Assembly: GCF_009931435.1 (NCBI RefSeq)
Contig: NZ_CP043414.1
Strand: one strand, 5' to 3'
Source: Escherichia coli
GTDB lineage: Bacteria; Pseudomonadota; Gammaproteobacteria; Enterobacterales; Enterobacteriaceae
DNA length: 64,000 nt
In this document: positions 13,632 through 13,805 of the stretch, in pieces
Numbering within the stretch: the first letter of the stretch is position 1
Layout of the letters: every line of letters starts with the position of its first letter
The notes under the pieces: generated by a model
What the model was told of the DNA's origin: nothing
The model's database searches: none
The model's input: only the letters and a program-made list of their open reading frames with translations
Position numbers and translations under genes: made by a program

Positions 13632-13805
13632 CTAGTTGTCGCTTTTACCGTGACTGCTCTTGCCACCTTTTTTACCTGCTTCAGATGCGCGCTGCGGGTC
13701 ATTTTTGAAATTACCCCCGCTGTGCTGTCCACCTTTTTTACCTGCTTCTGATGCTCTTTCGCGGTCTTCTGCAAAATTGCCGGAACCGCCTCGATGGTTT
13801 GCCAT
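13632..13805 (-). CDS. ymdF: Small stress-induced KGG-repeat protein YmdF
   Basis: ORF 13632..13835; start at MANHRGGSGNF (57 aa); internal tandem duplication (RASEAGKKGG twice). Confidence 0.85.
   Translation of the reverse strand: MANHRGGSGNFAEDRERASEAGKKGGQHSGGNFKNDPQRASEAGKKGGKSSHGKSDN

Follow-up and report, generated by a model that had tools for sequence, protein, structure and literature searches.

Apparent ancient duplication and recurrent loss of a KGG unit in the Escherichia coli stress-protein gene ymdF

Small proteins built from the KGG motif are catalogued by Pfam as family PF10685 (KGG; InterPro IPR019626, the "stress-induced bacterial acidophilic repeat motif") and by NCBI as "con-10 family general stress protein", a family name that YmdF already carries. 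The products of ymdF, yciG and a third Salmonella paralogue have been described as RpoS-dependent, hydrophilin-type, intrinsically disordered small proteins (PMC5437024, PMC7161692). The Salmonella orthologues (YciG/YmdF/STM14_1829) were confirmed to be unstructured, and the KGG motif was described in the same work as not functionally characterised (PMC7161692). The Salmonella paralogues have redundant roles in growth at pH 4.5 (bioRxiv 10.64898/2026.04.09.717482). Deletion of ymdF in E. coli results in thin biofilms of higher drug susceptibility, and E. coli ymdF and Pseudomonas aeruginosa PA2146 complement each other's mutants (PMC9262955). The number of KGG units is known to differ among paralogues, as in PA2146/PA2190 and Klebsiella ymdF1-3; PA2190 is a double-length paralogue of PA2146 whose length has been ascribed to duplication (PMC9262955). 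The variation in Pseudomonas and Klebsiella lies between paralogues and species, whereas the variation that we describe here lies between strains at a single orthologous locus. The papers that could be searched contained no mention of ymdF length polymorphism or of a link between ymdF alleles and O157. The repeat family itself has already been catalogued, and we regard strain-level loss of a unit as the one modest addition.

The ymdF coding sequence lies on the minus strand at positions 13632..13805 of the window, by which we mean the whole 64,000-nucleotide stretch of E. coli DNA that was analysed. In the ORF list and its translation, the gene has 57 codons and a TAG stop. Its neighbours are rutG, which ends at 13374, and wrbA, which starts at 14178, both on the plus strand. 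The order rutG-ymdF-wrbA is common to K-12 and other strains and the product begins with MANH, which places the gene in the ymdF orthologue group. The sequence-only reading that preceded this work had named the gene ymdF and given its product as 57 residues; this holds exactly, because the translation, MANHRGGSGNFAEDRERASEAGKKGGQHSGGNFKNDPQRASEAGKKGGKSSHGKSDN, is identical letter for letter to UniProt YMDF_ECOLI and the locus is annotated ymdF in 5416 of the 5426 complete E. coli genomes. The product names used at the locus are "general stress protein" and "con-10 family general stress protein". The 57-aa protein was found on at least 1000 contigs in a large collection of about 15 billion proteins, and the best genome match of the ymdF region (99.7%) was to the type strain ATCC 11775. 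Ten of the 5426 genomes had no match to positions 13560-13900 of the window, and seven of the matches to this query were plasmid records.

Assignment to the KGG-repeat stress proteins, also made in that reading, was confirmed by Pfam KGG, which matched YmdF in two stretches at 67 bits (cutoff 20.4, E = 1.6e-18). YmdF is an ordinary member of the family: it is small, glycine-rich, hydrophilic and stress-induced, and its units fit the 22-position model end to end. The protein has a mass of 5.9 kDa, is 21.1% glycine, and has a GRAVY of -1.71; I, L, V, M, F, W and C together account for only three of its residues. The high glycine content and high hydrophilicity that define hydrophilins (Garay-Arroyo, as cited in PMC5437024) were both found in YmdF. 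A search of NCBIfam with the 57-aa protein gave no match, and a search of the PDB found no relative.

The internal repeat consists of two full units behind an N-cap, MANH. Unit 1 covers codons 5-26 (RGGSGNFAEDRERASEAGKKGG; 13728..13793, minus strand) and unit 2 covers codons 27-48 (QHSGGNFKNDPQRASEAGKKGG; 13662..13727, minus strand), as delimited by self-alignment at an offset of 66, and the best Pfam KGG stretch lies at residues 32-52. In YciG, and likewise in the 35-aa one-unit form of YmdF described below, the same 22-position model fits residues 10-30. Behind unit 2 stands the truncated and degenerate start of a third unit, KSSHGKSDN (13635..13661, minus strand), in which S51, G53 and N57 equal S29, G31 and N35 at the 22-residue offset; this start is clearer in YciG (QQSGGN). 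ymdF is thus a gene of two full units and a truncated third.

We compared the coding sequence with itself at all offsets and found a single peak at 66 nt (22 codons), with 60 of 108 positions identical and an exact run of 20 nt; the longest run at any other offset was 7 nt. The two copies of this run, GAAGCAGGTAAAAAAGGTGG in gene orientation, lie at 13729..13748 in unit 1 and 13663..13682 in unit 2. The longest runs in shuffled sequences were 13 nt (2000 mononucleotide shuffles) and 14 nt (2000 codon shuffles). Neither a seeded repeat search (seed 6) nor Tandem Repeats Finder (score 30) reported a repeat here, so the repeat is demonstrated by the offset scan and the shuffles. The units are identical at 43 of 66 nucleotides and 14 of 22 residues, and share ten consecutive residues, RASEAGKKGG, of which seven also use the same codon. 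KKGG recurs at residues 23-26 and 45-48, with a period of exactly 22 residues (66 nt). The repeated protein block of the sequence-only reading is therefore real, being the same repeat read in a different phase with a unit of 22 aa, and the DNA-level direct repeat that it reported is present as the 20-nt run at offset 66. Its DNA range, 13660-13790, was about right in extent, but strong identity is confined to a near-perfect core of about 26 nt per copy (25 of 26 positions identical).

An orthologue scan with one genome per species (80 loci) gave 77 distinct ymdF sequences spanning about 25 genera. In genera other than Escherichia, unit 1 nearly always has the core AGAGCATCAGAAGCAGGTCGTAAAGGTGGC (RASEAGRKGG), with a CGN codon at position 23; unit 2 uses many synonymous codons there, with longest intragenic runs of 6-15 nt. 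Escherichia has AAA (Lys) at codon 23, the same as at the homologous codon 45. All eight mainstream E. coli two-unit alleles sampled also have GGT at codons 44 and 47, as in unit 1, and all eight contain the 20-nt run, which exists because AAA at codon 23 is combined with GGT at codons 44 and 47. Codon 44 is GGA in two divergent genomes labelled E. coli and in an E. albertii genome, codon 47 is GGG or GGC in one of the divergent E. coli and in E. albertii, and the intragenic runs of the divergent pair and E. albertii are only 8-11 nt. The alleles at codons 44 and 47 form the series GGA..GGG, GGA..GGT and GGT..GGT. In our reading, codon 23 of unit 1 changed from CGN (Arg) to AAA (Lys) in Escherichia, and two synonymous sites of unit 2 came to match unit 1 as well in mainstream E. 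coli, which together produced a 20-nt repeat with 66-bp spacing. Point substitutions or short intragenic conversion could have been the source of the run, and the data fit either.

The more far-reaching alternative is that ongoing intragenic gene conversion keeps the units in concerted evolution and that the perfect core is a conversion tract. Every Escherichia-specific change does shift one unit toward the other: codon 23 goes from CGT to AAA, the codon at 45, while codons 44 and 47 both become GGT, the former from GGA, and so equal codons 22 and 25. The unit 1 core of ymdF also matches its own unit 2 at 26 of 30 positions and unit 1 of yciG at 20 of 30. The intermediates, however, suit stepwise point changes (GGA..GGG in E69, GGA..GGT in SCPM), and a path from CGT through CGA and AGA to AAA is feasible, with CGA observed in Citrobacter. 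Other genera, moreover, diverge freely at the synonymous sites of unit 2, so that there is no general homogenisation. We consider ongoing conversion possible but somewhat unlikely.

A perfect identity of 20 nt that includes synonymous sites resembles a young duplication, and several Escherichia species have one-unit alleles; it might be supposed from this that ymdF underwent a recent internal tandem duplication in E. coli, with two units derived and the one-unit strains ancestral. Two units were found, however, in all 77 orthologue sequences, which include those from Salmonella, Citrobacter, Klebsiella, Enterobacter, Kosakonia, Buttiauxella and Cedecea, and also in the K-12 paralogue yciG, which has the same architecture of N-cap, two units and a partial third. 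Outside the core, the units of ymdF are only about 50% identical in DNA. Between the paralogues, identity is 48/66 for unit 1 and 58/66 for unit 2; unit 1 of ymdF resembles its counterpart in yciG more than it resembles unit 2 of the same gene. Because both values exceed the 43/66 found within ymdF, the duplication predates the split of ymdF and yciG. The one-unit alleles, finally, are nested in different haplotypes beside near-identical two-unit alleles, as detailed below, and we judge a recent duplication highly improbable. As read from these sequence comparisons, the duplication precedes both the ymdF/yciG split and the radiation of the Enterobacteriaceae, and it is an old, family-wide feature rather than a recent event in ymdF. 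The large protein collection held 2113 homologues, and those longer close relatives that we inspected owed their length to N-terminal extensions or C-terminal frameshifts; the exception among the inspected longer homologues was P0041, a distant protein with three units.

The closest relative within E. coli, YciG (b1259, yciGFE operon), shares with YmdF its architecture and the occurrence of 66-bp one-unit deletion alleles in natural strains. It differs in its locus, in its unit 1 core (ASDAGRKGG) and in its longest intragenic perfect run, which is 11 nt. YmdF in turn does not have the C-terminal GGNKSGKS of YciG, called a Walker-like motif by Pfam and PMC9262955.

We surveyed the 5426 complete E. 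coli genomes with two 60-nt junction queries, one for the deletion and one for a three-unit allele, and counted a junction as present when at least 80% of the query was covered. The sequence-only reading had supposed that repeat number may differ between strains. It does, but only by loss: the deletion junction was found in 346 of the 5426 genomes (about 6%), a number that measures sampling and not mutation rate because the collection contains many clonal O157:H7 genomes, and the three-unit junction was found in none of the 5426. The predicted 79-aa three-unit product was likewise absent from the roughly 15 billion proteins. With units lost and never gained, the repeat tract is not freely variable. 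In strain 143, from cattle, exactly 66 bp are absent between the repeats, and the ymdF region was matched at 88% coverage in two pieces. The one-unit product of this strain, MANHRGGSGNFAEDRERASEAGKKGGKSSHGKSDN, has 35 residues (WP_001273654.1) and was found on at least 1000 contigs in the protein collection. Pfam KGG matches it at 39 bits in one stretch.

Among the 60 deletion-junction matches listed, 29 are labelled O157 or O157:H7, including EDL933, Sakai, TW14359 and EC4115, and several without such a label either are known O157:H7 strains, such as Xuzhou21 and 86-24, or have genomes of O157 size. O157:H7 makes up most of the one-unit genomes among the matches listed. Other one-unit strains among these matches are APEC O2:K1:H4, human blood and urine isolates, and isolates from giant panda and turkey. 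The O157:H7 strain TR01 keeps two units.

To place these alleles on their backgrounds, we compared haplotypes over 100 nt upstream and 1250 nt downstream of ymdF. The one-unit strain elppa6 differs from the two-unit strain ETEC4088 at 1 of 1350 sites, and the one-unit strains AMSCJX02 and 13TMH22 differ from the two-unit strain 2018-10-2CC at 3 of 1350. One-unit alleles on different backgrounds show 34-44 mutual differences per approximately 1070-1350 sites. Because distinct one-unit haplotypes have near-identical two-unit neighbours, at least 4-5 independent losses occurred among the seven E. coli genomes sampled, in addition to those in sister species; E. albertii and E. fergusonii have one-unit alleles of their own, each with the C-terminus specific to the species (KSGN and KSDS). 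An A2V variant of YmdF (MVNH...) was seen in strain 2018-10-2CC (locus L094, 1473-1646).

Deletions between short direct repeats are well known in E. coli from the lacI hot spots, where RecA-independent slipped misalignment operates. Like the lacI-type deletions, ymdF recurrently loses one copy of a direct repeat together with the intervening DNA, here between 20-nt repeats 66 bp apart; unlike them, it leaves an in-frame product, a shortened but intact modular protein that persists in whole lineages, such as most of the O157:H7 genomes listed. The breakpoints fall within the perfect repeat and the loss is one exact period, and the one-unit gene still reads in frame from start to stop, with its ribosome-binding site and one complete KGG module preserved. 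We suggest, from the breakpoints, that the 20-nt direct repeats would serve as the substrate for slipped-strand or short-homology deletion, which would recurrently take out exactly one unit in frame and leave a 35-aa protein. One-unit ymdF products of Salmonella and Klebsiella were absent from the collection of about 15 billion proteins; the shared run in ymdF of these genera is about 8 nt, which fits the idea that a long perfect run favours deletion. However, yciG has lost 66 bp in frame at two different breakpoints, in KFu019 and BUCT2930, and because it does so with a longest run of only 11 nt, the idea of a hot spot is weakened. The 37-aa one-unit product of yciG was found on 301 contigs. 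For this gene we relied on individually inspected hits only, as wild-type yciG aligns over at least 80% of the junction query at 90-95% identity. Unit loss is thus a general property of the ymdF and yciG genes.

Recurrent change in a strain-variable repeat number is also what a phase-variable contingency locus would show, at which reversible changes in repeat number tune the protein. Only two states were seen here, however, and the change is by loss alone, with no expansion junction in the 5426 genomes. The 66-nt unit stays in frame, so that no on/off switching can result; two copies with a 20-nt core are far from a simple-sequence tract; and once one unit has been lost, no repeat is left from which it could be regenerated. 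With no gain of units, and with a change of unit that leaves the frame and the 35-aa product intact, the behaviour is not that of contingency repeats. Because the units are in frame and are only lost, the ymdF tract is not a contingency locus, and reversible tuning seems even less probable than a recent duplication. Assemblers can collapse short tandem repeats, but that the one-unit alleles are such artefacts is barely credible, given a repeat of only 132 bp with units 65% identical, trivial at any read length, an allele that is consistent in the independently sequenced EDL933, Sakai, TW14359, EC4115 and Xuzhou21, and its presence in hundreds of complete genomes and, as the 35-aa product, on contigs in such numbers.

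Together, these comparisons favour one reading, to which we assign a probability of roughly 85%: ymdF is a known KGG gene with an ancient duplication, in which a 20-nt repeat arose in Escherichia and one unit has been deleted recurrently, and its product, to judge from the literature, is most likely a disordered protectant.

A second feature of unit 1 concerns its synonymous sites. Third positions vary freely over most of ymdF, except at codons 1-4 and 17-21. In the 77 orthologues, codons 17-21 (AGA GCA TCA GAA GCA) have a third-position entropy of about 0.1 bit, whereas their homologues in unit 2 have values of 0.8-1.8 bit. The frozen stretch falls in an 18-nt segment of unit 1, AAGAGCAUCAGAAGCAGG (13741..13758, minus strand; codons 16-22), which can be divided into six A-R-N triplets, of which one is imperfect. 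In each ARN triplet, the A is a frozen third codon position, and a purine that CGN would fail to provide comes from the invariant, rare AGA codon. When the codons were recoded synonymously at random, an ARN run of this kind arose in only 1.2% of cases. The segment is kept in all one-unit alleles examined. In contrast, yciG has neither the synonymous-site freeze nor the ARN run of ymdF unit 1, and an ARN scan found no conserved motif there. RNA structure offered no explanation in the searches that we made: the single-sequence fold was unremarkable (z = -0.44), RNAalifold over four spans gave weak and inconsistent structures with the frozen segment in no stable helix, and Rfam found no family inside ymdF, only REP-type matches downstream. 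In the partly truncated text of CLASH and two RIL-seq data sets, no chimera with ymdF was present, which carries no weight against an Hfq or sRNA site. On the basis of the codon pattern, we hypothesize that AAGAGCAUCAGAAGCAGG is a candidate site for the Hfq distal face, or for another trans-acting factor or sRNA, within the coding sequence. If this is true, ymdF, but not yciG, would be under post-transcriptional control.

The upstream region of ymdF contains two conserved blocks. The Shine-Dalgarno sequence GGAGG (13812-13816, minus strand), 6 nt upstream of the ATG, is invariant in the orthologue alignment. Further upstream, the 77 orthologues conserve TCTATGCA (13838..13845, minus strand), a candidate sigma-S-type -10; we infer from its sequence only that the block is compatible with a sigma-S -10 element. 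A sigma-70 promoter scan called nothing at 13838..13845. In CUWW10 (locus L002, 2832-3529), an IS1A copy lies in the ymdF-wrbA spacer about 90 nt upstream of the ymdF start, so that part of the promoter region is probably no longer contiguous with the gene. wrbA is a known integration site of Stx phages, and in EDL933 (locus L085, 1-474) the prophage antirepressor gene Ant takes the place of wrbA upstream of the one-unit ymdF.

On the downstream side, an imperfect hairpin flanked by an A-run and a T-run (AAAAA/TTTTT) lies at 13553..13580, between ymdF and the REP elements. The orthologues conserve a block here, at +232 to +252 downstream of the ATG. We propose it, with low confidence, as a candidate bidirectional terminator for ymdF and rutG; a terminator scan did not call this hairpin. 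REP/BIME-type palindromes occupy 13397-13523, between rutG and ymdF. Within them, Rfam ES036 matched 13468-13510 at 38.5 bits, just above its gathering threshold, and naRNA4 matched 13397-13464 on both strands below gathering. About 257 nt separate rutG from ymdF in the window and in K-12, but only about 82 nt do so in ETEC4088, EDL933 and others, from which it follows that strains differ in whether they have the REP block. In APEC E12053 (O2:K1:H4, with a one-unit ymdF; locus L084, 1654-2876), rutG is a frameshifted pseudogene.

We consider it most likely, from the literature, that YmdF is an intrinsically disordered protein that protects stoichiometrically against stress, with additive modules, and that it would be partly redundant with its paralogues. 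A glycine content of 21% and a GRAVY of -1.71 agree with this picture of a disordered hydrophilin. We further considered two readings that go further, that the one-unit YmdF is a natural hypomorphic or altered-function allele and that the frozen segment is an Hfq or other trans-factor site, and we hold them to be doubtful, less probable than ongoing gene conversion but well above the remaining alternatives. If the first is true, one-unit YmdF would alter sigma-S-dependent biofilm formation or tolerance of stress and antibiotics, traits on which deletion of ymdF has an effect in K-12. The work that connected ymdF to biofilms and tolerance used K-12, which has two units, while the carriers of one unit are most of the O157:H7 strains among the matches listed and scattered other lineages.

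These alleles also bear on annotation, which is inconsistent. PGAP calls the one-unit yciG genes of KFu019 (locus L096, 356-469) and BUCT2930 (locus L097, 356-469) incomplete pseudogenes, with their ORFs intact, and in the Sakai record no feature is annotated under the one-unit ymdF locus. For work on post-transcriptional control in the sigma-S regulon, the synonymous-site freeze offers an inexpensive starting point. A 35-residue protein takes the place of the 57-residue one in most of the O157:H7 strains listed, in some B2/APEC strains and in part of E. albertii, and the allele series offers a natural test of whether KGG modules are additive.
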